From: Actinomycetota bacterium
GTDB lineage: Bacteria > Actinomycetota > Coriobacteriia > Anaerosomatales > PHET01
DNA: 64,000 bases
NCBI GenBank assembly: GCA_029265315.1
Contig: JAJUJM010000008.1
Location: 37,777 to 101,776, forward strand
Direction: 5' to 3'
Part shown: positions 20,996 to 36,844 of the stretch, piece by piece
Layout of the letters: each line of letters begins with the position of its first letter
Position numbering within the stretch: the first letter of the stretch is position 1
Translations under genes and position numbers: made by a program
Notes under the pieces: model-generated
What the model was told of the DNA's origin: nothing
Database searches by the model: none
The model's input: only the letters and a program-made list of their open reading frames with translations

Positions 20996-22648
20996 ATGGA
21001 CCCTGCGCGGGACATCACCTCTGCCGCCCTCGTCGAGGCCGCTGGCTTGCTCGGGACCGCGACGGTGCCGATCGCGCTGGTCGCTTCGGACGGCTCGGCG
21101 CTCTACTGCAACGATGCGTGGCGCCGGTTGATGGGCGAGCCGTCGACCGGTTCTTGGGGCTGGCTTGCAGCAGTGTCAGCTCCCGGTCGTGAGCGGGCGC
21201 GCCGTGAGTTCATCGCTGCTCTTGAAGAGTGTCGTTCGGGCGAGGTGGAGCTCTCGGTCACCGCGTCGGATGGAGCGTTGTCAGAAGTGGTGCTCGTGGT
21301 CGCGCCTATGCAACGAGGCCCGGCCGGCGCTTTGGTGCTCGCGTGGGACGTCACCGAGCGGCGTCGTAACGAGGACCGGCTCGCGTTCATGGCGGGCCAC
21401 GACGCGCTGACCGGGCTTGCGAATCGCAGGTCGTTCGACGAGGCGCTCGACCGGGCGGTGCATCGCGCCGCGCGCGGGGTGCGTTCGCATGTGCTGCTCC
21501 TCGACGTCGATAGGTTGAAGACACACAACGACACGCGCGGTCATGCGGCCGGCGATCAGGCCCTCGTCAATGCGGCGCTGTTGCTGAGGCGCATCGTCCG
21601 TGCCAGTGACCTGCCCGCACGCATCGGTGGAGACGAGTTCGCGGTCCTGCTTGAGGACTCCACCGCCGAGGAGGCTCGCGCGATCACCGAGCGCATCCGT
21701 CTGGCGGCGTCTGAGAACGGCCTGGCAGACGGTGGTCGCGAGACGGGGCTCGGGTTCTCGTGCGGCATCGCGGCCCTCGACGCCTCGGCGGATGCGCGGA
21801 CCGTGATGGAGAGGGCCGACGCTGCGCTCTATGCGGCGAAGTCGTCAGGGCGTAACCGCGTGGTCGAGTGGGAGGCTGCGCTCCACCAGGCAGACGCATC
21901 TGAACGAATCGCCTCGATCGTACGTGAGGCGTTCTCGCGCGACGGGTTCCATCTGGTGTACCAGCCAGTGGTCGATCTGGCCGACGGGTCGATCGCCTAC
22001 TTCGAGTCGCTCGTGCGATTGACCGCGCCTTCAGGTCGCGTCCTCATGCCCAGCGAGTTCCTGCCGGTCGTGGAGCGCCTCGGTATGATGCCGCGGCTCA
22101 CGCGGCGCGTGGTCGAGCTCGTGTTGTGGCAGATCGCCAATCTGCCGGGTCTGGATGTGTCGGTCAACGTCTCCGGCACGGACCTGGCCGACACAGAGCT
22201 TCTGCGCGACCTTGAGCAGGCCGTCCGGTCGAGCCGCGATGCGAGAGGTCGCTTCATCCTGGAGATCCCGGAAGCCACGCTTCTGGCCCACCTGGCGGGC
22301 GGGCGGGACTGGATGGAGACGCTATCGGACGCTGGGTGCCGGTTCGTGCTCGACGATTTCGGGACGGGTATCGGGATGTTCGTCCTGCTGCGCGAGCCGC
22401 ACGTGGAGAAGGTCAAACTGTCGCGTACCATCACGCGGGCGTTGGGTGTCGAGGACGGCCGCAGTGCGTTCGTGAAGGCGTTGCGTGAGCTGATCGAGTC
22501 GCAGGGCAAGTCCGCGGTCGCGACGTATCTGGAGACTGAGCGCCTCCTCGGCGAGGCCCGACATGCCGGCTTCAGGCTTGCGCAAGGGTATCGCATCGGC
22601 GAACCGCAACCGGACCTTGCCAAGCTCGCTGAGAGTCTGCGGACCTGA
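20996..22648 (+). CDS. PAS-GGDEF-EAL c-di-GMP signalling protein
   Basis: N-terminal PAS-like region. RASD I-site 5 aa before GGDEF (RIGGDEFAVLL). EAL domain with YFESLVR and DDFGTG motifs. Confidence 0.85.
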   Translation: MDPARDITSAALVEAAGLLGTATVPIALVASDGSALYCNDAWRRLMGEPSTGSWGWLAAVSAPGRERARREFIAALEECRSGEVELSVTASDGALSEVVLVVAPMQRGPAGALVLAWDVTERRRNEDRLAFMAGHDALTGLANRRSFDEALDRAVHRAARGVRSHVLLLDVDRLKTHNDTRGHAAGDQALVNAALLLRRIVRASDLPARIGGDEFAVLLEDSTAEEARAITERIRLAASENGLADGGRETGLGFSCGIAALDASADARTVMERADAALYAAKSSGRNRVVEWEAALHQADASERIASIVREAFSRDGFHLVYQPVVDLADGSIAYFESLVRLTAPSGRVLMPSEFLPVVERLGMMPRLTRRVVELVLWQIANLPGLDVSVNVSGTDLADTELLRDLEQAVRSSRDARGRFILEIPEATLLAHLAGGRDWMETLSDAGCRFVLDDFGTGIGMFVLLREPHVEKVKLSRTITRALGVEDGRSAFVKALRELIESQGKSAVATYLETERLLGEARHAGFRLAQGYRIGEPQPDLAKLAESLRT

Positions 22649-23559
22649 TGGTGAGAGGCCGTGCAGGTCATGGCGGACCATGCGCCGCAGAGGGTCACGA
22701 GGCGTCTCGACGTGACGCAGTCGTCTCCGTCGGTCCCCACCGTGCGTTGACCGGTGTGCTCGAGGGTGTCCGAAGCACCGCGTACGGCGTCACATGGCTT
22801 GCCGGCGACTTCGGCGATGAACCTGCCGTTCGACATCCGGCTTCCTTGATCGCTCGCGTGTGTGCTCTCGACGTGGAGTTCGTGTTCGTCGATGCGGGCG
22901 AACCTTGGGCGGACGCGCTGTGTGAGGAGCTCGGCCGAGCGGGGGTCGAGCCTGCCTGGGCGGTGCCGGGCCCACTTTCCCGTGCTGCGGGGAGCCTGGG
23001 TTGGGGGCTCGTGATGAGGGAGTCGGCCAGAGACCCGGACTCACTCGCCCGTCGAGTACAAGACGGTATGCCCGCTGTGCTCGAGGACATCGCCCGGGGA
23101 GCCGATCTGGGCGCACGCGTGTTCGTCCTGGCCGATGAGCTGGCATCGTCTGCCGGATGGCTCGTCGATCCCACCTTCGTGCGGAGCTGGCTTCTCCCAA
23201 CCTATGCGCCCTTCGTCACATCAGTGAGGGCGAGCGGTGGCCACGCGATGTTGCATTCAGACGGCGACATCGTCTCGCTCGTCAGTGATGTGGCCGAGCT
23301 CGGGTTCCGCGCGATTCATCTAGGGCCGGGGGCTGCGACTCCTGACGCGGTCAGGGCCGTGCGCGCCGCTGGGGTCGTGCCCGCAGGCGGCGTCTCGGTC
23401 CGCGAGGCACTTGAGAATCCGGAACAGGCTGTGACCGCATCGATGTCTCTCGCTTCGGAGGGGCCGATGGTGCTCTGTGACGATGGCGCCATCGCATCGA
23501 CCGTCGAATTGCACGCGGTTGCGAGGGTGCTCGCGAGCCTGCGGGGTCAACAGTGCTGA
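22648..23559 (+). CDS. Hypothetical protein, weak uroporphyrinogen-decarboxylase/MtaA-like (URO-D fold) resemblance
   Basis: TGATG coupling to the upstream gene. C-terminal half (FVLADELA...AMLHSDGDI...GFRAIHLGP) resembles URO-D family barrels. The assignment is tentative. Confidence 0.35.
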   Translation: MVRGRAGHGGPCAAEGHEASRRDAVVSVGPHRALTGVLEGVRSTAYGVTWLAGDFGDEPAVRHPASLIARVCALDVEFVFVDAGEPWADALCEELGRAGVEPAWAVPGPLSRAAGSLGWGLVMRESARDPDSLARRVQDGMPAVLEDIARGADLGARVFVLADELASSAGWLVDPTFVRSWLLPTYAPFVTSVRASGGHAMLHSDGDIVSLVSDVAELGFRAIHLGPGAATPDAVRAVRAAGVVPAGGVSVREALENPEQAVTASMSLASEGPMVLCDDGAIASTVELHAVARVLASLRGQQC

Positions 23560-23707: not shown

Positions 23708-24454
23708 GTGGCGCTCGAGGGCAACCTCAAGGACTTCTCCCTCTCTGACATGTTCCGTCTGCTCCAGACCGGGGCCAAGACGGGGGTGTTGCACATCGAC
23801 CGCGAGGGCGCGCACGGCGTCGTCTGCTTCCGTGACGGCCAGGTCTACCACGCAAGCGCGTCGGGCACCTCCGAACCTGCGGGCAAGCGACTGGCCAAGA
23901 CGGGCGTGGTCTCCGAGAAGCAGCTGCGACAGGCGCAGGGCCTGATGAAGATACAGAAGAAGGACAAGGCCGAGCGCAAGCTGGGGCAGATCCTCGTTGA
24001 CGAAGGCTACTTGGAATCCTCAGTGCTCGAGGACTTCGTCCGTGAGGTCGTCGCCGATGCGCTGTTCGACCTCATGAGGTGGGAGGAAGGCGAGCTGCGT
24101 TTCGAGCCCGACGAAGTCGTCGCTGACGCGGACCTGGGCATCACCGTGCCTGTCGACGGAGCGCTCGCCGATGCGGCGAGGCGGCTCGAGATGTGGAACC
24201 GCATCCGTGAGAAGATACCTTCCCTCGACACCCGGTTCGCCATGTCTGGGACGCCCGGGGGCAAGTCGGGCGACATCCACCTGAAGCCGCGGGAGTGGAT
24301 GCTTCTGTGCTACCTGCATGGCAGCCGCAGTGTGAGAGAGCTCATCGAGCTCACCGGCTACAGCGATTTCGACACAGCCAAGATCCTGTACGGCATGTAC
24401 GCCGCCGGGCTCATCGAGAAGGTCGGACCCGCGGGCGAGCGGCTTGAGGACTGA
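23708..24454 (+). CDS. PATAN/DUF4388-domain protein with C-terminal wHTH-like region
   Basis: GTG start. N-terminal LEGNLKDFSLSDMFRLLQTGAKTGVLHI...FRDGQVYHA is the DUF4388 signature. First gene of the che operon. Confidence 0.75.
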   Translation: MALEGNLKDFSLSDMFRLLQTGAKTGVLHIDREGAHGVVCFRDGQVYHASASGTSEPAGKRLAKTGVVSEKQLRQAQGLMKIQKKDKAERKLGQILVDEGYLESSVLEDFVREVVADALFDLMRWEEGELRFEPDEVVADADLGITVPVDGALADAARRLEMWNRIREKIPSLDTRFAMSGTPGGKSGDIHLKPREWMLLCYLHGSRSVRELIELTGYSDFDTAKILYGMYAAGLIEKVGPAGERLED

Positions 24455-24459
24455 CGACC

Positions 24460-25989
24460 GTGCATGAGGATTCGCTTCGCAAGGACCTCACGCCTGCCGA
24501 GTTCCAGCTGTTCCGGGACTGGATCCACCAGCACTCCGGGATCTTCTTGGAGGAGTCGAAAGCCGATTCGCTCCGTATCTCCCTCGTGACCCGGGCGACA
24601 CGCCACGACTTCACCGATTACCGCGACTACTTCCGGCTGCTTTCCAATGACGAGGACGAGTTCAAGGAGCTCATGAACCTCGTCACGATCAACGAGACGA
24701 GCTTCTTTCGCTTTCCGGCTCAGTTCGAGGCCTTGCGTGACAAGGTGATTCCCGAGATCCTCGACGGTCGTCCTCAGGGGGCTCCCCGGCAGTTCCGGGT
24801 GTGGTCGGCCGGCTGCTCGACCGGTGAGGAACCGTACACCCTGTCGATCACCCTCCTCGAGTCATGCCTCGAAGGGCTTGGCTACACCTTCGAGGTGGTC
24901 GGCACCGACGTCTCGACCCAAGCGCTCGACCGGGCGCGCAAGGCCGTGTATCCGGAGCGAGCCGTCGCCAATCTCGCGCCGGCCGTGGTCCAGCGGTGGT
25001 TCGAGCCCGTGAGCGGCGGCTACCGGCCGATCAAGCGGGTGCGTGAGAAGTGCTCTTTCCACTTCCACAATCTGATCAAGGAACCGTATCCGCTGGCCCT
25101 CATGAGCAACTGGGACGTCATCTTCTGCCGCAACGTCACCATCTACTTCAAGGTCGAGTCGACACGGCGAGTGGTCGACCACTACTTCGACGCGCTGAAC
25201 CCCGGGGGATACCTGTTCATCGGTCATTCCGAGACGCTGACCTCTATCTCCGACCGCTTCGAGCCGGTCGAGATCGGCGGCGTGTTCCTCTATCGCAAGC
25301 CTCATGTCAAGCGAGCGCTGTCGTTCGAAGACGTCATGGCGCGCCGTCAGCGCAGGAGCGGGGTCAGACCCGTGAGGGAGAAGCCACGGGAGGACACGGC
25401 ACCCGGGACGAAGGGGGCGCTGCCGTCGCTGCGCTCACACCGGGCCGCGACCGAGCCCGAGCCTGAGCCTGAAGTGAGTCAGGCCGAGCAACTCATCGCC
25501 CAAGCCAAGGCGCGGCTCGAACAGGCGAGCGCCGCGGAGGCGTTGGTACTGGCCAACGAAGCCGTGACGCTCGAGCCCGACAACATCGAGGCCCACCTGG
25601 TGGCCGCCTTCGCCTACGCCGACCTGGGCAAGCTCGAAGAGGCGATGGAGCAGGCCGAGACGGTGCTCGCCACCTATCCGCTCACCGCCGGTGCGCGCTA
25701 CATCATGGGCGTGATACAGCAGCAGCGGGGCAACATCGACGAGGCGATCGCTGAATTCAAGCGCACCATCTACATCGATCCCGATTTCGTGCTGGCGCAT
25801 TTCGCCATCGCGAACCTGCAGCGTCAGCAGGGCAACGTCGCCGACGCGTGCCGGGAATACGAGAACACCTTGAGGGCGCTGTACGCGAAGCCCGAGGGGT
25901 CATGGACGGCGTTTCTCGGAGGCTTCAGGCCTGATCTTCTGGCGAGGAGTTGTGAGCGTAGTCTGATAGAGTGTGGACGTGGCCGATAG
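24460..25989 (+). CDS. cheR: CheR-type chemoreceptor methyltransferase fused to C-terminal TPR repeats
   Basis: ETSFFR and SAGCSTGEEPYTLS SAM-binding motifs. C-terminal ~150 aa are TPR-like repeats (as in FrzF/WspC). Confidence 0.85.
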   Translation: MHEDSLRKDLTPAEFQLFRDWIHQHSGIFLEESKADSLRISLVTRATRHDFTDYRDYFRLLSNDEDEFKELMNLVTINETSFFRFPAQFEALRDKVIPEILDGRPQGAPRQFRVWSAGCSTGEEPYTLSITLLESCLEGLGYTFEVVGTDVSTQALDRARKAVYPERAVANLAPAVVQRWFEPVSGGYRPIKRVREKCSFHFHNLIKEPYPLALMSNWDVIFCRNVTIYFKVESTRRVVDHYFDALNPGGYLFIGHSETLTSISDRFEPVEIGGVFLYRKPHVKRALSFEDVMARRQRRSGVRPVREKPREDTAPGTKGALPSLRSHRAATEPEPEPEVSQAEQLIAQAKARLEQASAAEALVLANEAVTLEPDNIEAHLVAAFAYADLGKLEEAMEQAETVLATYPLTAGARYIMGVIQQQRGNIDEAIAEFKRTIYIDPDFVLAHFAIANLQRQQGNVADACREYENTLRALYAKPEGSWTAFLGGFRPDLLARSCERSLIECGRGR

Positions 25990-26063: not shown

Positions 26064-26444
26064 ATGGCGACAGCGCGGATTCTCGCGGTAGACGACAGCC
26101 CGACCATCCTTGAGATGATCAAGGCGATCCTCATCGCGGGCGGCTATGAGGTCATCACCGCGGCGGACGGTGCTGAGGCACTGGAGAAGGCCCGAGCGGA
26201 GATGCCCGACCTGATTCTGCTCGACGTGATGCTTCCCAAGCTGGACGGGTACCGGGTGTGCCGTCTGCTCAAGTTCGACCAGAAGTACAAGGGTATCCCC
26301 ATCATCATGCTCACGGCCAAGACGGAAGAGCAGGCGATGGCCACAGGCATCCGCACAGGCGCCAACCAGTACCTGACCAAGCCCATCGAGCCGGAGAAGC
26401 TCCTTGCTGCGGTCGCCGAGGAGCTGGCCAAGGCGCAAGGCTGA
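26064..26444 (+). CDS. Single-domain response regulator (CheY-like receiver)
   Basis: Receiver motifs ILAVDDS, phospho-acceptor LILLDVMLPKLDG, MLTAK, and K in YLTKP. Confidence 0.85.
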   Translation: MATARILAVDDSPTILEMIKAILIAGGYEVITAADGAEALEKARAEMPDLILLDVMLPKLDGYRVCRLLKFDQKYKGIPIIMLTAKTEEQAMATGIRTGANQYLTKPIEPEKLLAAVAEELAKAQG

Positions 26445-26458
26445 TAGGGCGGGGAGAC

Positions 26459-28276
26459 GTGCCGGAGTCGAACTCTATCGCGGGAAGGGTCTTGGACGCG
26501 GCGGTGGGCGCGGGGATGCTCGCCGTCGACCAGGTGTCGAGCGCTCGCGCCGAGTCGGTGGACGACGCCGGGGCCGGTCGCGTCCTGCTCGGGCGAGGAC
26601 TGCTCTCCTCAGAGCAGCTCGCCACGATCCTTGAGGACCATCTCGGCTTTCCGCGTGTCGACCTCGAGAGCTACGCGCCCGATGAAGAGGCGCTTGCGAT
26701 CATGCCCCCTGCAGTGGCCCGCGCACGCGACCTGCTGCCGCTGTTCGAGATCGAGGGAACCCTCACGGTCGCCATCGGACGTCCTGAAGACATCTTCGAG
26801 TTGGACGCCGTGGGTGCCGAGCTCGGGGTGAGCATCGACGCGGTGCTCGCGGACCCCCACGAGGTCACTGCCGCCGTTGCGCAGTACTTCGGTCAGGCAT
26901 CTCCGGTCGATGTGCCGTCGATCGACGTGCCTGCGGAGGACCTCGAGATATCCGCCTCCGACTTCTTCGAGCTCGGCGACGACACTCCAGTCGTGATGGA
27001 GGTCCCGTCTTCCGAGCCCGCGCCCGGCGAACACGCTCCGGCGCAGACGGTCGAGCAGGTCGTGGAGGCAGTCGCACCCGAAGGCGCTCCTTCGGTGGAT
27101 TTGGACGTGCTCGCGGTGGCGGACGAGCGCAAGGTCGCTGTGCTCGTGACCGATATCCTCGAGCAGGCCGTCGCGCGCGGTGCGAGTCGTATCCATCTGC
27201 TGCCGTACAAGACCGATTTCTTCCTCGTCTTCCGCATCAAGGGCCGTCTGGAGAAAGTGGCGAGCGCGCCACTGTCGATGCAGCAACCTTTGATCGATGG
27301 CTTCAAGTCGTTCGCGAAGCTCGGCGGGGTCGCATCGAACCGGCCCGCGCTCGGCCGCGTCCACGCCGACATCGCAGGCAAGCCGGTCGTGCTCACGCTC
27401 TCGTCGGTACCCACCGTCGCCGGTCAGCGTCTGGTCATCTCCATCAGCGTGCAGCGACCTCAGCCGCGCGACCTGGCCGAGATCGGCATGTCGGAGGCCG
27501 AGAGTCGCGCCCTGTACGCCATGGTCGAGCGAGGCCGGGGCATCCTGCTCGTCGCCGGGCCCGTAGGCGGGGGGCGCTCGACGACGTACTACGCACTCCT
27601 CCAGCATGCAGCACAGGTCGGCAAGACGGTGTATTCCGTCGAGCGCTCGATCGACTACGAGATCCCTGCGGTGGCGCAGGTGCTCGTGAGCCCTGGGCAG
27701 CCCATCGGTGCATCGAGCTACTTCGCGGCAGGCATGCGCCAGGACACGGACGTCATGGCGATCGACTCCATACAGTCGACGGAGGACGTTCACCTGGCCA
27801 TCGAGGCGGCTGGGCTCGGCAAGCTGGTCGTCGCAACGTTCGCCGGTGGCGACATCGTGCACGCGGTGCGCCGGATGCTCGATCTGGGGACGGAACCGGT
27901 CTCTTTGGCGAGTGCACTGACGCTCGGTGTCGCGCAGCGGGTCGTGCGCACCAACTGCCCGAACTGTTCGGTCGAGGAGCGGAGTCCTCTGGCATCACGC
28001 ATTCCGGGCGCCGAGCCCGGATTGACGTCGAAACGAGGCACCGGGTGCCCGAACTGCGGCAAGACGGGTTTCGCCGGCGCGACCATCGTCTATGAGGTGT
28101 TGCCCTTCACCGAGCCGGTGCGTGCGGTCATCGCGCGTGGCGGTTCTGCCGATGATATCGAGGCGGCGGCACGTGCGGCCGGGATGCGCCCGATGATCGC
28201 GTCCGGTTTGGCGAAGGTGAAGGAAGGCATCGTGAGTCCCGAGGAGCTCGATCGGGTCATGAGATACGCACAGTGA
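26459..28276 (+). CDS. GspE/PilB-family secretion-ATPase homologue with T2SSE_N domain and degenerate catalytic motifs (predicted pseudo-ATPase)
   Basis: GTG 26459 inside track ORF 26258-28276. N-terminal GspE_N-like domain. Walker A is GPVGGGRST (Arg for Lys). DSIQS replaces GEIRD. LGKLVVATFAGGD replaces TGHLVxSTLHTND. The tetracysteine CPNC...CPNC is retained. Confidence 0.8.
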   Translation: MPESNSIAGRVLDAAVGAGMLAVDQVSSARAESVDDAGAGRVLLGRGLLSSEQLATILEDHLGFPRVDLESYAPDEEALAIMPPAVARARDLLPLFEIEGTLTVAIGRPEDIFELDAVGAELGVSIDAVLADPHEVTAAVAQYFGQASPVDVPSIDVPAEDLEISASDFFELGDDTPVVMEVPSSEPAPGEHAPAQTVEQVVEAVAPEGAPSVDLDVLAVADERKVAVLVTDILEQAVARGASRIHLLPYKTDFFLVFRIKGRLEKVASAPLSMQQPLIDGFKSFAKLGGVASNRPALGRVHADIAGKPVVLTLSSVPTVAGQRLVISISVQRPQPRDLAEIGMSEAESRALYAMVERGRGILLVAGPVGGGRSTTYYALLQHAAQVGKTVYSVERSIDYEIPAVAQVLVSPGQPIGASSYFAAGMRQDTDVMAIDSIQSTEDVHLAIEAAGLGKLVVATFAGGDIVHAVRRMLDLGTEPVSLASALTLGVAQRVVRTNCPNCSVEERSPLASRIPGAEPGLTSKRGTGCPNCGKTGFAGATIVYEVLPFTEPVRAVIARGGSADDIEAAARAAGMRPMIASGLAKVKEGIVSPEELDRVMRYAQ

Positions 28277-28776
28277 GGCCATGGATGACCGAAGAGAACA
28301 CTCCACTGAGCGACGTTGACGAAGAGGGAACAGGGGTCCACGCGTATGTCGAGCGGGCCGTGGCGTTCTTCCTCGACGCGCAGCGCTACGCGCTTCCGAT
28401 CGACCGCGTTCAGGAGATACAGCAGATCGTCGCGTTCTCCGAGGTGCCGGGTGGTGGTACTGGCGTCGTCGGGATGATCAACCTGCGTGGCCACGTGATC
28501 CCGGCGGTTGACCTGCGCCGTATCGTTGGGCTGCCGCCGCGAGAATATGACCTCGAGACGCCCATGATCATCTGCCGCATCAAGGGCCAGCTCGTGGCAC
28601 TGGTCGTCGACGAGGTGCAGGACGTGCTGGAGCTGCCCGACGGTTGCCTGCAGGCAGCTCCGCCGATGCACGCCCTGTCCTCGAAGATGATCGGAGTCGC
28701 TCGCCTGGATGACGGCCTCGTCTATCTGCTCGACCTCGACCTGCTGCTCGGGCCGACGTTGTCGGGAGGGTGGTGA
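28273..28776 (+). CDS. cheW: CheW-like coupling protein 1
   Basis: GTGA overlap with the upstream gene. CheW fold motifs YALPIDRVQEI and GMINLRGHVIPAVDLR. Confidence 0.8.
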   Translation: MRPWMTEENTPLSDVDEEGTGVHAYVERAVAFFLDAQRYALPIDRVQEIQQIVAFSEVPGGGTGVVGMINLRGHVIPAVDLRRIVGLPPREYDLETPMIICRIKGQLVALVVDEVQDVLELPDGCLQAAPPMHALSSKMIGVARLDDGLVYLLDLDLLLGPTLSGGW

Positions 28777-29342
28777 TGACGATGGTCGACGGTCACGATG
28801 TGAAAGAAGCGAGCACGCTCGCCGAGACCGCTGAGGAGGTATTGCGGCGAAGGGCCGAATCACTCGCGCGAGAGACGCTCGAAGAGGAGGCCACGCACCG
28901 CCTTGCGCTGCTGCTGTTCCGCATCGCGGAGGAGTGGTACGCCGTGAAGGTCGCGGACGTGAGGGAGATCTTCCAGGAGTACGAGATCACGACCGTGCCG
29001 TGCGTGCCGGACCACATCCTCGGCGTGGTCAACGTCCGAGGCGAGATCCTGTCGATCACAGACCCTGCGAAGCTGATGCGTCTCGGGGCGGTCGAGGTGG
29101 GCGGCTCAGTCCAGCCGCCGGCGATCGTCATCGTCGCCGATGAGGTCGCCACCGCCATGGTCGTGGATGAGATCGGCGACATCGCCGAGGTTCCGGACGA
29201 TGCCGTCGAGCCGCCCATCAGCATCATCGACAGGGCCCAGGCCGAGTACATCGCCGGATCGGTGCACGTGGGCGACCTCATGGTCGGGCTCATCAACATT
29301 GAACGTATGCTTGAACCCGTCACGACGGGTGGACGACACTGA
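28770..29342 (+). CDS. cheW: CheW-like coupling protein 2
   Basis: Overlaps the CheW1 3' end. Motifs [12 protein letters not shown] and [14 protein letters not shown]. Confidence 0.8.
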
Positions 29343-29371: not shown

Positions 29372-30598
29372 ATGGGAATCTGGAAGCGCATCAACGGCAG
29401 GTTGCTGTACAAGATGACGTTCTTCATCGTCATCCTGCAGGTGGTGTTTCTCCTCTGCCAGTCCATCCTGATCTTCTCGTTGTTCAGAAGTCACCTCGAC
29501 GAGGATCCGGCGGTGCTTTCCGGCCTGCTGACGCTCTTGGGCGTCTCGGTGGTGCTGACCGCCGCGTTCGCTGCCGTGAACTATCTGCTCGTTCGTCGTT
29601 CCTTGGATCCGCTCACCGCGGTCGCCGATTCGGTGCGCGCCGCGTGCCAAGGAGAGATCGGGCGCAAGGTCGCCGTGAAGACCGACGACGAGATCGGCGT
29701 GCTTGCCTCCAGCTACAACCAGATGCTCGACCTCATCGTCTACCTGATCCGCCAGACGCAGGAATCGAGCCGACGTCTCCAGCAGTCAGCGAACGACATC
29801 CTGTCTGCGACCGAGCAGCAGGCTTCGGGTGCTGCTGAGCAGGCCGCCTCGATCTCAGAGACGACCGCGACGATGGAGGAACTCGCGAGCACGTACCGCC
29901 AGATCGCGGAGAACGCCGACCAGGTCGTGAGCATGGCCGAGGCCTCGCTCTCCAACGCCGAATCGGGCCAGCAGGCCGTCATGAACACGCTGACGTCGAT
30001 GGAGAACATCAAGAGTCGCACCCAGCAAAGTGCGAACAAGATCCTCGCCTTGGGCGAGCGCAGCCAGCAGATCGGCCAAGTCCTCACGATCATCAACTCC
30101 ATCGCTGACCAGACCAAGATCCTCGCGTTGAACGCGGCCATCGAGGCGGCGCGTGCCGGAGAGGCCGGCAAGGGCTTCAGCGTCGTCGCGATCGAGATCC
30201 GCAAGCTTGCCGAGTCGGTGGTGGAGTCGACCAGCGAGATCTCGACGATCATGACTGAGATACAGACCGCGGCCAACGAGCTCGTGATGTCCACCGAGCA
30301 GGAGCTCAAGCAGGTGCAGTCGGGTGTCGACCTGGCCCACGTGACAGGAGAGTCACTCGAGCAGATCCTCGAGATGGTCGAGCAGACCACCGTCGCGGCC
30401 AAGGAGATCAGCGCGGCGACGCAGCAGCAGAAGTCCGCGACAGACCAGGTGGTCAAGGCGATGCGCGAGGTCGCGGCGGTGGCGCAACAGACAGCCGCAG
30501 GCTCCCGCCAGGTCGCGAGTGCGGCAGAGCAGCTCTCGTCGATGGCAAGGGAGTCGAGCCAGGTGGGCTCGGCGTTCACGATCGTCGACGGCGCATAG
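29372..30598 (+). CDS. Methyl-accepting chemotaxis protein, 2 TM + HAMP, no periplasmic sensor domain
   Basis: Two TM helices separated by about 10 residues. HAMP ([15 protein letters not shown]). Conserved hairpin tip [37 protein letters not shown]. Confidence 0.9.
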
Positions 30599-30638
30599 GG
30601 CGCGCGGACAGCCAGGCACACGACAGGAAGGCGACGCC

Positions 30639-33068
30639 ATGGTCGAGTTCGACCGAAGCGCGTTCATAGCGAAGTTCCAAGAAGAGGCGCAGGACCTGCT
30701 CCAGCGCCTGAACGAGAGCGTCATCACGCTTGAGGGTGATCCGGAGAACCGTGAGCTCATCGACCAGATGATGCGCGACGCTCACACCATCAAGGGCTCC
30801 TCGCGCATGGTCGGGCTCATCGAGATCTCCGATGTCGCGCACTGGCTCGAAGACATCATGGTCAAGGTGCGCGATGGCGAGATGAAGTACACGCCGCAGA
30901 TGAGCGACTACTTCTTCGAAGCGCTCGACGCGATCGTGTACCTGGCGGACAACAACGGCGTGAACGAGGGCGGCCTGCTCGACCTCGACGGCCTCAAAGC
31001 GAAGTTGTCCGCTCTGGCCGAAGGCGGCACCGATGCGGCCAAGGCGGCAGAAGCCCAAGCGGCCGCCGCGCAGGACGCATCGGCTGTGGAGTCACCGCAG
31101 CCCGCTCCCAAGAAGCGCACACGGAAGAAGGCGGTACCCGAGGCCGAGGCCCCGGACCAACAGGGCAGCGCGCCCTCTGGGACTGACGAGCCCGAGGGCG
31201 CCGACGAGCAGGAAGCGCACGAGGACGAAGGCGACGAGGGCTCCGACAGCGCGAGACAAGAGGAGAAGTCGGCCGCCGTCGCGTCGAAGACGGCGCCCGG
31301 CAAGAAGGTGCCTGACGAGCTCAAGAGCAAGGTGCAGGCGACCATCCGTATCAGGACCACGCAGGTCGACTCGCTGCTCAACCTCATCAGCGAGGTGGTC
31401 ATCGGTCAGATAAAGGCCGAGCAGCGCGCGAACGAGATGCGGGCCATCCAGGCCGCCACCATGGAGACTTGGCAGACGTGGTTGCGCATGCGCTCGCTGC
31501 TCACGGCGCTTGACGAGCAGGGCGTCGCCGAAGGTCTCACCGAGGACATGAACCTTCTCGACACACGTCTGTCTGAGAGCCAACGCGCCCTGTCGGCGTT
31601 CGTCAAGGACTACACCGAGGACGTGAGTCGCACTTCCCTTGTCGTGAACGACCTTCAGGAGCAGGGCATGCGGCTGCGCATGCTGCCCGCCAACACCATC
31701 TTCCAGACGTTCCCGCGGGCGGTGCGCGACCTCGCCAAGCAGTTCAAGAAGGAGATCGATTTCCAGATCGAGGGTGGCGATACCGAGCTGGACAAGAAGG
31801 TCCTCGAGGAGATCAACGATCCGTTGGTCCACATCATGCGCAACTGCGTCGACCACGGCATCGAAGACCCCGAGACACGCAAGAAGCTCGGAAAGCCGCC
31901 GGTCGGCACCGTCAAGCTCGCGGCCCGTCAGGAGGGCGACCGGATCATCATCGAGATCACTGATGACGGTGCTGGGATCGACCCGGACAAGGTGCGCGAG
32001 TCCGCGGTACGCAAGGGCTACATCAGCGAGGCCGAGGCCGCGGCGATGTCCGACCGCGAAGCGATGTACCTCATCTTCGAGGCCGGTTTCTCCACTGCTG
32101 CGATCATCACGGAGATCTCGGGTCGTGGCGTCGGCATGGATGTCGTCCGCGAGTTCGTCGTCGAGAAACTCAAAGGTTCCTTGGACGTCGAATCCGAGGT
32201 CGGCAAAGGCACCCGGTTCAAGCTCACGATCCCGCTGACGCTCGCGATCATCCGCGCGCTGATGCTGCGTGTGGGCGACCAGATCTTCGCCATGCCGACC
32301 GGGTCGATCGATGAGACGCTGCGGATCGACCCGGCCGAGATCATCAAGGTCGAGGGACGCGAGGTGATCCGTCGCCAGCGTCGGACGATCCCGCTCGTGC
32401 GGCTCTCTGAGATCCTCGGCATACCCGCGCAGCCTCTGGAGGCGGCCAAACAACCAATCGTGACCATCGGTTACTCGGGGCACCGCATGGGGTTCATGGT
32501 CGACGGGTTCGTGGGCGAGCAGCAGATCGTGATCAAGCCGCTCGGCAGTCACCTGAAGAAGATCGACAACGTCGCGGGGGTCACCATCCTGGGCGCCGGC
32601 GAGGTCGTGCCGATCCTGAACATCCCTGACCTGATGGCCAACGCTCGCACCAAGTCGGGACAGCGTGTCGGTCCCGCGCAACGTGCCGAACGTGAGGGGC
32701 CGCGCAAGGTCCTCATCTGCGAGGACTCGTTCACGACCCGCGAGCTGGAGCGCTCGATCTTCGAGGCGGCCGGCTACGAGGTCGAGACCGCGGTCGACGG
32801 CGCACAAGGCTTCCAGAAGCTGCGGGACGGACTGAAGGTCGATGCGGTGGTGACTGACGTCCAGATGCCCAACATGACCGGTTTCGAGCTCACGAAGGCG
32901 ATCAAGTCGGACCCGACGCTGATGGCCATCCCCGTCATCATCGTGACGTCGCTCGAGCGTGACGAGGAGAAGGCAGAGGGCATCGAGGCCGGTGCGGACG
33001 CCTACATCACCAAGTCGGTCTTCAACCAGGACACGCTGCTCGACACGGTCGACCGCCTCATCCGCTGA
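30639..33068 (+). CDS. cheA: CheA histidine kinase fused to C-terminal receiver (CheA-CheY hybrid)
   Basis: ATG 30639 inside track ORF 30519-33068. HPt DAHTIKGSSRMVG, acidic linker, HATPase DDGAGID / GRGVGMDVV, CheW-like P5, C-terminal REC with DVQMPNMTG. Confidence 0.9.
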   Translation: MVEFDRSAFIAKFQEEAQDLLQRLNESVITLEGDPENRELIDQMMRDAHTIKGSSRMVGLIEISDVAHWLEDIMVKVRDGEMKYTPQMSDYFFEALDAIVYLADNNGVNEGGLLDLDGLKAKLSALAEGGTDAAKAAEAQAAAAQDASAVESPQPAPKKRTRKKAVPEAEAPDQQGSAPSGTDEPEGADEQEAHEDEGDEGSDSARQEEKSAAVASKTAPGKKVPDELKSKVQATIRIRTTQVDSLLNLISEVVIGQIKAEQRANEMRAIQAATMETWQTWLRMRSLLTALDEQGVAEGLTEDMNLLDTRLSESQRALSAFVKDYTEDVSRTSLVVNDLQEQGMRLRMLPANTIFQTFPRAVRDLAKQFKKEIDFQIEGGDTELDKKVLEEINDPLVHIMRNCVDHGIEDPETRKKLGKPPVGTVKLAARQEGDRIIIEITDDGAGIDPDKVRESAVRKGYISEAEAAAMSDREAMYLIFEAGFSTAAIITEISGRGVGMDVVREFVVEKLKGSLDVESEVGKGTRFKLTIPLTLAIIRALMLRVGDQIFAMPTGSIDETLRIDPAEIIKVEGREVIRRQRRTIPLVRLSEILGIPAQPLEAAKQPIVTIGYSGHRMGFMVDGFVGEQQIVIKPLGSHLKKIDNVAGVTILGAGEVVPILNIPDLMANARTKSGQRVGPAQRAEREGPRKVLICEDSFTTRELERSIFEAAGYEVETAVDGAQGFQKLRDGLKVDAVVTDVQMPNMTGFELTKAIKSDPTLMAIPVIIVTSLERDEEKAEGIEAGADAYITKSVFNQDTLLDTVDRLIR

Positions 33069-33080
33069 GAAGGGGGACTC

Positions 33081-34124
33081 GTGACCGACGGCAACAAGGT
33101 GCGCGTCGTCATCGCCGATGATTCGCTCGTCGCTCGCGAGATGCTCGCCCAGATCCTGAGCAGCGACCCGGACATCGAGGTCGTCGGACAGGCCAAGGAC
33201 GGGAGTGAGGCGGTCGAGCTCGTCGAGCGGCTGCGACCGGACCTTGTGACCATGGACATCCACATGCCCAAGCTCGACGGGCTCAGGGCGACCGAGAAGA
33301 TCATGGCGTTCACGCCGACGCCCATTCTCGTCGTCTCTTCCTCGGTTCACGGCGAGGGCATGGGCAGGGCATTCGACGCGCTGAACCTCGGTGCCCTCGA
33401 GGTTATCAAGAAGCCCGAGCCCCGGGACTGGGCCGAGCTCGACCGTATCGGTCGCGAGGTCATCCGCAAGGTCAAGATCCTCGCCAACGTCCGGGTGATC
33501 ACGCACATCCGTGGGCGCAGGGGCATCTCTCAGGTCGCGGCGCCGGTACACGCGGGCAAGGCCAAGCGTTCGCTCGTGGCCATCGGTTCGTCCACCGGGG
33601 GGCCATCTGCGCTTCTCGCGGTCCTCGGAAGGCTGCCGCAGGACTTCCCGGTGCCGATCGTGGTGGCGCAGCACATCGCCGACGGGTTCGTTCCCGGCCT
33701 CGTGAGCTGGCTCGACTCGGGGTGCCGCATACGGGTGGTGGCGGCCTCCGATGGTCAACGGATCGAGCCTGGCGTGGCACATTTCGCGCCCACCGGTTCG
33801 AACATGGTGCTCGACGGCACCACCATCAGGTTCCAGCCGCCCGGCCGGGGTCAACTCTACATCCCAAGCGCGGACACCTTGTTCGATTCTGTCGCGGTCA
33901 GCCATGGGAATCGCGCCGTCGGGGTGTTGCTCACCGGTATGGGGGCGGATGGCGCCGAGGGGCTCAAGCTGATGCGCAACAAAGGTGCGGCGACCATCGC
34001 TCAGGACGAGGAGACCTGCACGGTCTTCGGTATGCCCAAGGCGGCCATCGACATCGGAGCAGCCGAGAAGGTGCTCCCAGTCACGAAGATCGCCGAGGCG
34101 ATCGAGGAGCTCATCGCCGGCTGA
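33081..34124 (+). CDS. cheB: Chemotaxis response-regulator protein-glutamate methylesterase CheB
   Basis: GTG after GAAGGGGGA. REC (VIADDS, MDIHMPKLDG) plus CheB esterase (GSSTGGP, AQHI, GMGADG, TCTVFGMP). Confidence 0.9.
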   Translation: MTDGNKVRVVIADDSLVAREMLAQILSSDPDIEVVGQAKDGSEAVELVERLRPDLVTMDIHMPKLDGLRATEKIMAFTPTPILVVSSSVHGEGMGRAFDALNLGALEVIKKPEPRDWAELDRIGREVIRKVKILANVRVITHIRGRRGISQVAAPVHAGKAKRSLVAIGSSTGGPSALLAVLGRLPQDFPVPIVVAQHIADGFVPGLVSWLDSGCRIRVVAASDGQRIEPGVAHFAPTGSNMVLDGTTIRFQPPGRGQLYIPSADTLFDSVAVSHGNRAVGVLLTGMGADGAEGLKLMRNKGAATIAQDEETCTVFGMPKAAIDIGAAEKVLPVTKIAEAIEELIAG

Positions 34125-34346: not shown

Positions 34347-35954
34347 ATGGCGCTCGGTGTCTACGTCTCCCGCTGCGCGGGACGGGTCGACGCCGCACTC
34401 GACGTCGGGGACGCGCTTGATGGCGTGGCCTCGCGGGCTGCGGTGACCCGGGTGTTCGACGATTTCTTCGATGTGGGTGTGGCGGACTCCATCGTCGCCG
34501 ATGTCTCCGCCCACGGTCTGGACGCCGTCGTCTTGGCCGGCCACTCGGAGGAGCACTACCGCAAGAGCCTGTCCGCGAGCCACCTCATCGACCGAATCGC
34601 GGAGGCGGGCGTCAACCCCAACCGCATCGTCGCTGCCAACATCCTCGAACAGTGCGCGCTGGCGCATCCGGACGACCGCGCGGGCGCCACCGCGAAAGCC
34701 CGGGCCATCATCGGTGTCGCTGCGGACAGGGCCGGCTCCGGTGATGCGGTCGAGGGCGAGAGCGTCCGGCCGAAGTGCTCGGTCATGGTCCTGGGGGCGA
34801 GCGCGGAGGCGTTCGTCGCGGCGCAACGCCTGCTTCGCCTGGGGTACTCCGTCGTGCTCGCCGATCGCGAGGACGGCTGCGCCCGGGCCGGCAGGGCCCA
34901 GAGCATGCACGCGACGGCTTCGTACGTGCTCGGGCACCCGGCGGCCACGATCGTCGACAGCTCGCGGCTCGTCGATGGGGACGGGTTCCTCGGTGACTAC
35001 CACCTCGTCTTGGAGTCGCCGGAGGGCACGGTCACCTACGAGGTCGGGGGCATCCTGCTCGCGCGTCCTGACCACACGGAGTGGGTGGAGGAGCTGCGGC
35101 GTCACTTCCGCGTGGACGTCGACGATTCGGGGTTCGCCCGGTCGCTTGACCCGACGATGCACCCCGCTGAGACCGTGGACGAGGGCATCATGGTCATGCC
35201 GTTGCGTCGGAGCGATGCCAAGGAGTCAGAGAAGGTCGCTGCGGCCGACGCTGCGGCGATGGCGCTCGTGCTGAAGCTGTCCCATGACACGGTCGTACGG
35301 TACCGCCACACCTCGGTCGTCGATGAGTCCCTGTGCGGAGGCTGTGCCACATGTGTGCGCACGTGCGCGTTCGGTGCCTGCTACATCGGTGACGACGGGT
35401 TCAGCCACGTCGACGCCCGTCGCTGTGTGGGCTGTGGCAAGTGCGTCGTGAGCTGTCCGGTCGGAGCCAGAGACATCCTGAGCTCGCCGCACGACCATCT
35501 CATGCGCGCCGTGCGGGACCTCGCACAGGTCGAGACCACCTCCGACAAGGTGATCGGGTTTCTGTGCGGAGGGTGTGGCTACCCCGCCGCGGACCATGCG
35601 GCGAAGACCGTCGCGGAGCGCGGCGAGGGATACCCCTCATCATTCCTGCCCGTCCGGATTCCGTGCGGCGGGCGGCTCGACACGCTGTACGTGCTCGAGG
35701 CGTTCAAGGCCGGCTTCGACGGCGTGTGCGTGTATCGGTGCCGGGACGGTCACTGTCACAACCGGGTGGGCAACCTCGACATGGACCGGCGAGTGAATCT
35801 ACTCCGCACGGTGCTGCGCAGTCGAAACATCGATGACGCCCGCCTGCGCATCGTCGACATCTCGCCGTTCGAGGGCGACCACTTCGTCGACACACTGAAC
35901 GAGGTGTACGCCACGATCGGCGGCCTCACGAACGGGAAAGGAGGTGCGTTGTGA
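34347..35954 (+). CDS. HdrA-like / 2x[4Fe-4S] ferredoxin / MvhD-domain fusion protein (hydrogenase-associated electron-transfer subunit)
   Basis: CGGCATCVRTC...CVGCGKCVVSCP ferredoxin motifs. C-terminal MvhD/FlpD-like FLCGGCGYP...IPCGGRL...YRCRDGHCHN. The Rossmann region reads VLGASAEAF, so GxGxxG is degenerate. Confidence 0.65.
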   Translation: MALGVYVSRCAGRVDAALDVGDALDGVASRAAVTRVFDDFFDVGVADSIVADVSAHGLDAVVLAGHSEEHYRKSLSASHLIDRIAEAGVNPNRIVAANILEQCALAHPDDRAGATAKARAIIGVAADRAGSGDAVEGESVRPKCSVMVLGASAEAFVAAQRLLRLGYSVVLADREDGCARAGRAQSMHATASYVLGHPAATIVDSSRLVDGDGFLGDYHLVLESPEGTVTYEVGGILLARPDHTEWVEELRRHFRVDVDDSGFARSLDPTMHPAETVDEGIMVMPLRRSDAKESEKVAAADAAAMALVLKLSHDTVVRYRHTSVVDESLCGGCATCVRTCAFGACYIGDDGFSHVDARRCVGCGKCVVSCPVGARDILSSPHDHLMRAVRDLAQVETTSDKVIGFLCGGCGYPAADHAAKTVAERGEGYPSSFLPVRIPCGGRLDTLYVLEAFKAGFDGVCVYRCRDGHCHNRVGNLDMDRRVNLLRTVLRSRNIDDARLRIVDISPFEGDHFVDTLNEVYATIGGLTNGKGGAL

Positions 35955-36844
35955 GCAGGCCGACACTCGCCACGGTATCACTCGGAGGCTGCGAAGGCTG
36001 CCACGTCGCGCTGCTCGACGCACACGAGCGTCTGCTCGACCTGCTGGCGGCCGCCGACCTCGTGCACTCGCCCTTCAGCGGCGAGGAGGAGATACCCGAG
36101 AACGTGGACGTCGTGATGGTCGAAGGGGCCATCACGACCGAGGAGGACCTGCGCCGACTGCTGGCGGCCCGCGCTGCCGCGACGACGCTCGTCGCCGTCG
36201 GGTCCTGCGCGGTGCTCGGGGGCATAGGCGGGCTGCGCAACCTGGACCCGGTCGAGGAGGTGACGGCGACGGCGTTCGGTGACGCGGCGGGGTCGAAGTC
36301 CGAACGGCTCCCGCGCTTGCGTCGCCGCGTCCAGCCGGTCACTGACTTCGTGGACGTCGAGATCAGCGTGCCGGGCTGCGCGCCCGAGACCCAGCTCATC
36401 GTCGACGCGTTGACGGCGGCCGTGACGGGGACCCCGTACGAGCTGGACCGCCGTAACCTGTGTGACGAGTGCCCGCGTGAGAAGCAGACGTTGCTCGAGC
36501 ACTCCTCGGAGTTCGTCTCTGACAGCGTGGTGGCCCTGATGGAGCTCGATGAGATCGACGAGAAGCGCTGTCTGCTCGAGCAGGGTCTCATCTGCATGGG
36601 CCCGATGACGCGTGAGGGCTGCGGAGCCAAGTGCACGTCGATGAACGTGCCGTGCCGTGGCTGCATGGGCCCGAGCCGCATGGAGTTCGAACAAGGCGCC
36701 AAGACGATCGACGCGCTGGCGGCGGTGCTGCCGGCGGGCGCGATCATGTACATGGACGACCTCATCGGGACGAGCTACCGGTTCTCGATGCCGGTGTCCG
36801 TGTTCCCCGCGGCCTACCAGCATGAAGGAGGCGAAGATGCCTGA
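35951..36844 (+). CDS. [NiFe] hydrogenase small subunit, group 3 (MvhG-like)
   Basis: GTGA overlap with the upstream gene. LGGCEGCH proximal-cluster motif. GSCAVLGG. C-terminal Cys clusters CDECP...CMGPMTREGCGAKC...CRGCMGP. Confidence 0.8.
   Translation: MSRPTLATVSLGGCEGCHVALLDAHERLLDLLAAADLVHSPFSGEEEIPENVDVVMVEGAITTEEDLRRLLAARAAATTLVAVGSCAVLGGIGGLRNLDPVEEVTATAFGDAAGSKSERLPRLRRRVQPVTDFVDVEISVPGCAPETQLIVDALTAAVTGTPYELDRRNLCDECPREKQTLLEHSSEFVSDSVVALMELDEIDEKRCLLEQGLICMGPMTREGCGAKCTSMNVPCRGCMGPSRMEFEQGAKTIDALAAVLPAGAIMYMDDLIGTSYRFSMPVSVFPAAYQHEGGEDA

Follow-up and report, generated by a model that had tools for sequence, protein, structure and literature searches.

A conserved PilB-family protein with rewritten catalytic motifs is encoded within a chemosensory operon of uncultured Actinomycetota

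The DNA analyzed here, hereafter the window, is a 64,000 nt stretch of contig JAJUJM010000008.1 (positions 37,777–101,776, assembly GCA_029265315.1) from an actinomycetote of the class Coriobacteriia (order Anaerosomatales, PHET01). It carries a chemosensory (che) operon with the gene order PATAN, CheR-TPR, CheY, pseudo-PilB, CheW, CheW, MCP (methyl-accepting chemotaxis protein), CheA-REC and CheB, where pseudo-PilB is our designation for a member of the PilB/GspE family of secretion ATPases whose catalytic motifs are all rewritten. Its frame runs for 605 codons without interruption, as a first-pass annotation of the sequence had described, from a GTG located 14 nt past the cheY stop and preceded in that interval by the Shine-Dalgarno sequence GGGGAG. 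This is the likely start, because a longer open reading frame (ORF) from position 26258 overruns the upstream gene and is poor in third-position GC, and the N-termini of the orthologues are consistent with it. At the other end, the pseudo-PilB stop overlaps the GTG start of the first cheW gene (GTGA), for which there is an alternative in-frame ATG 8 nt downstream. The features of the gene are as follows, with model confidence given as pLDDT (predicted local distance difference test).

26459..28276, + strand: pseudo-PilB, 605-aa PilB/GspE-family protein with rewritten catalytic motifs (Pfam, phmmer, dN/dS, AlphaFold)
26459..26899, + strand: N1D/MshEN (GSPII) domain, residues 1–147 (Pfam MshEN; pLDDT ~90; cyclic di-GMP (c-di-GMP) motifs degenerate)
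26900..27085, + strand: acidic, Pro-rich disordered linker, residues 148–209 (pLDDT 29–40; column conservation)
26936–26971, + strand: conserved linker motif [DE][DE]LEISAxDFF[ED], residues 160–171 (column conservation)
27044–27070, + strand: conserved linker motif QTVExVVEA, residues 196–204 (column conservation)
27104..27478, + strand: N2D domain, residues 216–340 (ASRIH and the ALGR arginine R300 kept; QD of the canonical PQDGR gone)
27557..27586, + strand: Walker A remnant GPVGGGRSTT, residues 367–376 (canonical GPTGSGKT; Arg373 in place of Lys)
27635..27655, + strand: Asp-box remnant SVERSID, residues 393–399 (canonical T[IV]EDPVE)
27752..27778, + strand: Walker B remnant VMAIDSIQS, residues 432–440 (canonical hhhhGEIRD)
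27815..27853, + strand: His-box remnant LGKLVVATFAGGD, residues 453–465 (canonical TGHLVxSTLHTND; both His gone)
27956..28057, + strand: zinc-binding tetracysteine CPNC...CPNC, C500, C503, C530 and C533 (invariant in the family)

The domain order of pseudo-PilB, N1D (MshEN/GSPII), disordered linker, N2D, C-terminal domain (CTD) and zinc tetracysteine, is that of PilB/GspE proteins. Pfam detected T2SSE (3.8e-64, residues 222–599) and MshEN (1.1e-14, residues 62–147), and the closest solved structures were Geobacter PilB, Thermus PilF and Vibrio GspE, with E-values from 4e-68 to 7e-51. An AlphaFold2 monomer model built on 41 sequences (mean pLDDT 77) has a confident N1D, folded N2D and CTD and a disordered linker; in Foldseek comparisons it matched PilF 5oiu (E = 2.5e-34) and PilB 5tsh (~1e-33), within a range of 1e-30 to 1e-34 for the PilF, PilB and GspE matches. 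The model therefore retains the PilB fold, and the fold-defining regions, including ASRIH, are recognizable, as anticipated from the sequence in the first-pass annotation. Conversely, pseudo-PilB scored 269.4 bits with the NCBIfam PilB equivalog TIGR02538 (cut-off 675.65) and 266.7 bits with the GspE equivalog TIGR02533 (cut-off 630.25), far below both cut-offs, and NCBIfam contains no model specific for che-linked pseudo-PilB proteins.

Motif columns were assigned by a residue-by-residue phmmer alignment to Geobacter PilB (6olj/5tsg/5zfr, E ~4e-68), in which all four substituted motifs fall on catalytic columns; the alignment with the solved PilB, PilF and GspE proteins likewise placed the substitutions on catalytic positions. 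Walker A, GPTGSGKT in Geobacter PilB, reads GPVGGGRST, with R373 (codon at 27575–27577) instead of the invariant Lys. The Asp box changes from AEDPVE to VERSID, keeping E395 and D/E399 and replacing the central Asp by R396 and the Pro by Ser, and Walker B changes from MIGEIRD to AIDSIQS (DSIQS at 27764–27778), with Ser437 in place of the catalytic Glu and Asp436 in place of Gly. The His box is TGHLVLSTLHTND in Geobacter PilB and LGKLVVATFAGGD in pseudo-PilB (27815–27853), with neither His left. These codon positions agree with those of the first-pass annotation, which had further described every ATPase signature as degenerated. This holds in that all four are altered, with two refinements: the P-loop glycine scaffold G-x-x-G-x-G-[R]-S-T, E395 and D/E399 are retained, and the Walker B region gains an Asp, D436, yielding 'hhhhD'. 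The nucleotide pocket has therefore been rewritten, not erased. G371, G372, R373 and S374 of the P-loop and D436 are invariant across the family, and so are the four cysteines of the tetracysteine, which had been reported correctly as intact. Judged by these motifs, pseudo-PilB is predicted to be unable to hydrolyze ATP by the PilB/GspE mechanism.

A homologue search of 5.8 billion proteins retrieved more than 120 full-length relatives, with identities of 59–91%. Canonical GKT, GEIRD and His-box sequences were looked for among them, and the replacement motifs were found, identical in kind, in 120/120 homologues among the matches listed. The family consensus is [AG]PVxGGRS[ST]T, YSVER[SA]I[ED]Y, AIDSxQSxE and GKLV[IV]ATFAGxD, together with the four conserved cysteines. 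We then calculated the ratio of nonsynonymous to synonymous substitution rates (dN/dS) by the Nei-Gojobori method, using as the main comparison a 91%-identical orthologue (locus L052). The ratio was 0.058 for the whole gene, with an unsaturated dS of 0.93, and it varied along the protein: 0.10 in N1D, 0.14 in the linker, 0.04 in N2D, 0.003 in the 'dead' ATPase core (residues 341–495) and 0.04 in the zinc/C-terminal part. Against more distant orthologues the core gave 0.03–0.10; the neighboring che genes ranged from 0.016 to 0.12 in the comparison with L052, and up to ~0.28 in more distant ones. The rewritten nucleotide-pocket region is, then, the most strongly constrained part of pseudo-PilB. 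Loss of the catalytic residues, purifying selection and conservation of the new state coincide in this gene, as for a pseudoenzyme under selection.

A decaying pseudogene, or a sequencing or assembly artefact, would explain the motif loss itself and nothing beyond it. Because more than 120 full-length orthologues share the replacement motifs and dN/dS is ~0.06, with the frame open over all its codons and synteny kept across phylum-level distances, we rejected this explanation, to which we give practically no credence. The proposal in the first-pass annotation of a maintained paralogue, neither an error nor a pseudogene, is thus well supported, its non-catalytic state being read from the sequence.

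The genomic distribution of the gene was analyzed in a locus scan with one genome per GTDB species, in which gene order was mapped by tblastn. Close relatives of pseudo-PilB occurred in 41 loci, all from metagenome-assembled genomes (MAGs) of uncultured Actinomycetota (Coriobacteriia, HGW-Actinobacteria or UBA), and the gene order of the operon was the same in ~40 of them, wherever the contig reaches far enough. To gauge the extent of the wider family, HMMER was run exhaustively against 1.84 billion representatives, and the scores showed a sharp break. Of the 150 best matches, ~120 carry all four canonical motifs; the altered relatives form a separate high-scoring group, above the ~250–310 bits at which canonical PilB/GspE proteins begin; motif alteration is therefore far beyond chance. 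The nearest canonical PilB representatives with a name are from Firmicutes and Pseudomonadota. Every altered relative with a readable contig lies between a response-regulator gene and CheW genes, and those on long contigs lie in the full PATAN-CheR_TPR-CheY-X-CheW-(CheW)-MCP-CheA_REC-CheB operon. The same operon was found in relatives of only 27–48% identity, including four distant loci with 32–43% GC as compared to 60–69% in the Actinomycetota group, so that the module spans very different organisms. In the low-GC loci, CheY is 63–72% identical to that of the window and pseudo-PilB 27–31%.

Arg373 is conserved in the close family, and several sub-branches of the che-linked family lack the basic residue of the P-loop, which reads APVAGGSTTT, SPIGEGASET, APAGSGAEVT, APAANGAAAT or APAGQSVGDT (P0291, P0295–P0297; P0122, P0125, P0126, P0128), with Ser, Ala or Val in place of the Walker A Arg. 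Since their operon context is unchanged, the function shared by the family cannot depend on that residue. Taken together, the altered branches may form a stepwise series of motif loss. A neighbor-joining (NJ) tree of the N2D-CTD core gave an unresolved three-way split into the canonical clade and two long-branched, che-linked degenerate groups.

These comparisons also bear on the possibility that pseudo-PilB is an active NTPase with non-canonical residues, using an Arg-type P-loop, a Ser for Mg2+ and Asp436 as the Walker B Asp, and would then be a divergent motor, or a slow hydrolase acting like a switch, instead of a pseudoenzyme. The invariance of the P-loop glycines, R373/S374 and D436 would fit such an enzyme, as would the strong constraint on the pocket and the existence of distant che-linked branches with GK[ST] and 'hhhhDE'. 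We nevertheless regard it as improbable, since the catalytic Glu, both His of the His box, the central Asp of the Asp box and the QD of PQDGR were replaced together, and since sub-branches such as APVAGGSTTT, APAGSGAEVT and APAANGAAAT have lost the Arg as well within an unchanged operon.

Three further observations concern individual loci. Two low-GC loci contain an additional gene of ~170 aa between PATAN and CheR (L057, 7529–8044; L059, 7526–8038); the product from L057 matches Arf, Roc and Ras, as a small MglA-like GTPase, and that from L059 has no Pfam hit. PATAN genes are known as neighbors of MglA/MglB homologues. One MAG has two che clusters, L003 (JBBIJX010000025.1) and L016 (JBBIJX010000012.1), and a separate pseudo-PilB in each, with 75 and 59% identity to the query, respectively; the first cluster is full and the second starts at cheY because the contig ends there, and the pair represents either true paralogy or a mixed bin. 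Lastly, L040 (CAWDNM010000001.1) contains the cluster, but its pseudo-PilB, CheR, CheW2 and CheA match in fragments only (best segment 78% identical, E = 4e-96), which may be due to frameshifts in a long-read assembly or to a degraded copy.

The genes that accompany pseudo-PilB in the window are listed below.

20996..22648, + strand: PAS-GGDEF-EAL protein, a variable upstream neighbor present in only a subset of loci
23708..24454, + strand: stand-alone PATAN (DUF4388/PatA_N) protein without a receiver domain, first gene of the operon (Pfam 1.4e-31)
24460..25989, + strand: CheR methyltransferase with a C-terminal TPR domain (Pfam, synteny)
26064..26444, + strand: single-domain CheY-like response regulator with all phospho-acceptor residues (D10, D11, D54, T84, K106)
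28273..28776, + strand: CheW 1 (domain annotation)
28770..29342, + strand: CheW 2 (domain annotation)
29372..30598, + strand: MCP with two N-terminal hydrophobic segments, HAMP and signaling domain (domain annotation, sequence)
30519..33068, + strand: hybrid CheA (Hpt, dimerization, HATPase, CheW, REC), start uncertain
33081..34124, + strand: CheB methylesterase (REC plus CheB; domain annotation)

The start of the CheA gene is uncertain because its ORF overlaps the end of the MCP gene. The two hydrophobic segments of this MCP, the only one in the operon, are ~10 residues apart and directly followed by HAMP; as it lacks a periplasmic sensor or ligand-binding domain, the signal probably arises in the cytoplasm or the membrane, or comes from a partner protein. 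In the PATAN protein (248 aa) DUF4388 was the only domain detected, so it is not a PATAN-receiver fusion of the PatA type; nevertheless, the operon starts with PATAN and continues with CheY, CheW, MCP and a hybrid CheA-REC, following the order described by Han et al. Within pseudo-PilB, the two conserved motifs of the linker resemble docking motifs, for which the CheR protein, through its TPR domain, is a conceivable reader.

CheY is the most conserved product of the operon, with a dN/dS of 0.016 and a cluster at 90% identity of 493 members. It is 88–97% identical across the Actinomycetota loci, compared to 45–85% for other components of the operon, and 63–86% identical to distant relatives, including the low-GC ones, where every other che protein is at 27–54%. 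This extraordinary conservation suggests that CheY may have several simultaneous binding partners. In comparisons with PDB and NCBIfam, it is a generic receiver, closest to REC domains of the PleD/PhoB type.

The MshEN domain, and the PAS-GGDEF-EAL gene found upstream here as well as in some other loci, raise the possibility that pseudo-PilB is a receptor for c-di-GMP synthesized or degraded by the GGDEF-EAL protein, with the dead ATPase body as effector. We therefore compared the family with the relaxed MshEN motif (PMC5013675), which consists of two tandem 24-residue repeats of RLGxx[LVI][LVI]xxG[LVI][LVI]xxxxLxxxLxxQ. MshE R9–Q32 and R38–Q61 map onto pseudo-PilB residues 10–33 and 38–61. 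Residues corresponding to G11, R38 and Q61 have been replaced in all members, and the one corresponding to Q32 in most; R10, the counterpart of Arg9, is the only one kept, and 0/121 family members matched the motif in either half; the hydrophobic core positions of the helix bundle are kept. A canonical MshEN receptor was thus rejected. Additionally, the GGDEF-EAL gene is missing from most loci, and the better motif-model match, although below threshold, is in the PATAN protein. Overall, a role as c-di-GMP receptor seems very unlikely. The GGDEF-EAL gene was located upstream of the cluster in L004, L005, L013, L014 and L017 by tblastn, and in L052 and L053 by Pfam. The match in the PATAN protein is to NCBIfam NF053729, an 'MshE-related c-di-GMP-binding domain' (29.8 bits, below the cut-off of 38), and corresponds to an alpha-helical insertion at residues 59–112 (AERKLGQILVDEGYLESSVLEDFV); any c-di-GMP input may thus enter through PATAN, not through pseudo-PilB.

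We did not find pilus or flagellar genes in the 64-kb window, and the che operon is flanked by housekeeping genes (smpB, a hydrogenase, clpPX and valS). A regular-expression search for the prepilin signature and a tblastn search with canonical PilBs for a second secretion ATPase were both negative within ±10 kb, in the window and in ~50 che-linked loci. Conversely, in incidental control loci with canonical PilB/GspE, GFT[LI][IV]E prepilins adjoin the ATPase genes. Pseudo-PilB is, then, not encoded with pilin or pseudopilin, PilC/GspF or other machine genes within ±10 kb, and we rejected a role as local pilus or secretion motor on these grounds.

The flanks of the operon show some regularities of their own. 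In the window, the che cluster is followed directly (34347–38249) by genes for a FlpD/MvhD-like ferredoxin and for the small and large subunits of a NiFe-hydrogenase; L001, L004, L005, L016, L036 and L037 likewise have a FlpD homologue after the cluster, and the low-GC locus L059 has the full FlpD/NiFe-hydrogenase set upstream of it. On the other side, an ORF at 22648–23559 has weak URO-D/MtaA-like matches (Pfam 6.6e-05, below the cut-off) and a third-position GC of 0.70, lower than its neighbors; homologues with 27–38% identity are located upstream of the cluster in many loci, at variable distances.

Pseudo-PilB shares with the solved motor proteins (Geobacter metallireducens PilB, 5TSG/5TSH/6OLJ; Thermus thermophilus PilF, 5OIU; Vibrio cholerae EpsE, 1P9R) the domain order, the fold, the ASxIH motif, the N2D arginine and the C-terminal zinc tetracysteine. 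It differs from them in the changes from Lys to Arg and from Glu to Ser, in the loss of the His-box His and in the rewritten Asp box, as well as in the location of its gene, which is in a che operon with no pilin, PilC or PilM genes next to it. In Myxococcus xanthus, the Dif chemosensory pathway receives signals from PilB, which lies upstream of it; hydrolysis is not required, and PilB apparently acts in a nucleotide-free state (Black et al., 2017, PMC5544727). Both cases combine a PilB-family protein with a chemotaxis-like pathway, and in M. xanthus it is a hydrolysis-dead or nucleotide-free form that signals; however, there a real motor moonlights, which is not encoded with the dif genes and whose inactive forms are laboratory mutants, whereas pseudo-PilB appears, from its motifs, to be naturally dead and is a dedicated paralogue encoded inside the che operon.

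In the cyanobacterial Tax/Pix systems, including that of Synechocystis, PatA-type (PATAN-REC) regulators bind PilB1, through its N-terminus, and PilC (Han et al., 2021, bioRxiv 10.1101/2021.06.11.447907). These systems resemble the operon described here in having a PATAN-type gene first, followed by CheY, CheW, MCP and a hybrid CheA-REC. They differ in that PATAN here lacks a receiver domain, the operon includes CheR-TPR and CheB, and a degenerate PilB-like gene is inserted between cheY and cheW; binding between PATAN and pseudo-PilB is in our case a candidate interaction. A connection between the two partners is also seen in Deinococcota, where we found PATAN (PF14332)-MshEN-T2SSE fusions of ~884 aa (P0273–P0312, e.g., P0305 and P0309 from Oceanithermus). 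In them, PATAN is physically joined to a PilB-family body, and the fusion is a Rosetta-stone link between PATAN and the PilB family; unlike pseudo-PilB, these proteins keep GPTGSGKS, EDPVE, GEIRD and TGHLVIATLHTND. Finally, FimX, with degenerate GGDEF/EAL domains, regulates together with PilZ a real PilB (reviewed in PMC11656802). It is likewise an enzyme fold that has lost catalysis and has been retained to regulate pilus assembly by binding a ligand or partner, although its fold and ligand are others, whereas here it is the PilB fold itself that is degenerate.

The M. xanthus precedent, in particular, is open to a different use of the same parts, in which pseudo-PilB would be an input sensor or array scaffold, conveying to MCP/CheW/CheA the state of a machine (pilus or envelope) or of a bound nucleotide; it may also be the structural hub of an array that faces the cytoplasm. 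The position of M. xanthus PilB ahead of Dif, without a need for hydrolysis, is in line with this alternative, and so are the overlap of the pseudo-PilB stop with the cheW start (or its position 8 nt before it), the two CheW genes downstream, and the MCP without a periplasmic sensor domain, on account of which the system needs some other input. Set against this, the linkage of pseudo-PilB to the upstream cheY is equally tight, and in Synechocystis the PATAN domain, an output module, binds PilB1. We hold this alternative to be rather unlikely, if deserving of attention.

We favor, with some reserve, the interpretation that pseudo-PilB is a non-hydrolyzing adaptor derived from PilB, which would be a dedicated and stoichiometric component of a PATAN-containing, Tfp/Tax/Frz-like chemosensory pathway and would couple it to a pilus-type machine or to the receptor array. 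Two elements of it are observed directly, namely the co-transcribed, tightly packed position of the gene between cheY and cheW, within an operon that keeps one gene order even in distant lineages, and the constraint on the rewritten nucleotide pocket, the strongest within the protein. Beyond this point the scheme is conditional. The retention of the P-loop glycines and R373/S374 and the new D436 in 'hhhhD' suggest that the protein might hold a nucleotide, or mimic one fixed nucleotide state, without turnover. The membrane array of MCP, CheW and CheA-REC would set the phosphorylation of CheY, and CheY~P and/or the stand-alone PATAN protein would bind pseudo-PilB, with N1D and the two conserved motifs of the acidic linker as candidate docking sites. 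Pseudo-PilB could then sit on a type IV pilus-type platform (PilC/PilM) as adaptor or decoy, occupying or modifying the docking site of the motor, or else form mixed or competing rings with a real PilB; the outcome would be a switch of pilus assembly or of pilus placement. Alternatively, it might relay the state of the machine back to the receptor array. In short, pseudo-PilB could be pictured as the signaling face of PilB, separated from the motor and hard-wired into a che operon.

Several points weigh against this interpretation. Canonical PilB, PilC and pilins are absent from the 64-kb window and from the ±10 kb flanks of the loci, and the sole hint of a pilus comes from a possibly related order, the Anaerosomatales (OPB41 lineage, class Coriobacteriia), whose cultured representatives are non-motile, rod-shaped and covered with many pili-like appendages. 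The G+C content of the window is 66.5% and that of Anaerosoma tenue 66.6%; however, the link between the lineage of the window and these isolates is only suggestive because there is no named isolate among the 41 loci, and the papers on OPB41/Anaerosomatales do not discuss pil or che genes. We infer the loss of hydrolysis, the retention of nucleotide binding and the formation of hexamers from sequence alone, and the confidence of the AlphaFold2 model is low exactly at the P-loop (370–372) and at residues 408–416, so that the model does not define the geometry of the pocket. The wider family, moreover, may not be uniformly inactive, since some che-linked branches (P0172, P0272, P0278, P0284, P0285 and P0292) keep GK[ST] and a 'hhhhDE' Walker B, without the Asp and His boxes; the NJ tree is compatible with a single origin of the degenerate branches, without proving it. 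Lastly, the direction of the signal could be either way, with pseudo-PilB as output effector or as input sensor.

In a 2024 review of PilB and its cofactors (PMC11656802), all extension ATPases have the catalytic glutamate and the Walker A and B motifs, and no naturally inactive PilB paralogue is listed. We likewise found no description of an inactive PilB paralogue, or of a PilB-like gene in che operons, in the full-text literature, a scope outside of which most subscription journals fall. The fold and the classes of partners were known; what is new here is a conserved non-catalytic form of PilB, in a new genomic and presumably also functional role. Proteins of this family appear in databases as 'type IV pilus assembly protein PilB', 'GspE/PulE family protein' or 'TadA', and with these names uncultured subsurface Actinomycetota would wrongly be assigned a motor for pili or secretion.

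PilB-family ATPases are generally regarded as motors, and the only molecular handles so far on the route from chemosensory systems to the type IV pilus motor are the binding of PATAN to PilB1 in cyanobacteria and the hydrolysis-independent signaling of PilB in Myxococcus. A dead PilB encoded between CheY and CheW would amount to a natural separation-of-function allele for the signaling role of PilB, and it comes with a defined set of partners, CheY, PATAN and CheW, for the study of how che pathways and pilus motors communicate. More tentatively, these operons could represent an unrecognized class of chemosensory pathway, present in at least two very different lineages, in which a dead PilB ring is the obligatory hub on which CheY~P and PATAN act; this ring might gate a pilus-type machine at its docking site or, where there is no pilus, serve as a nucleotide-state switch for the array. 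If this were true, pseudo-PilB would be the first natural pseudo-ATPase of the secretion ATPase superfamily with a signaling role.

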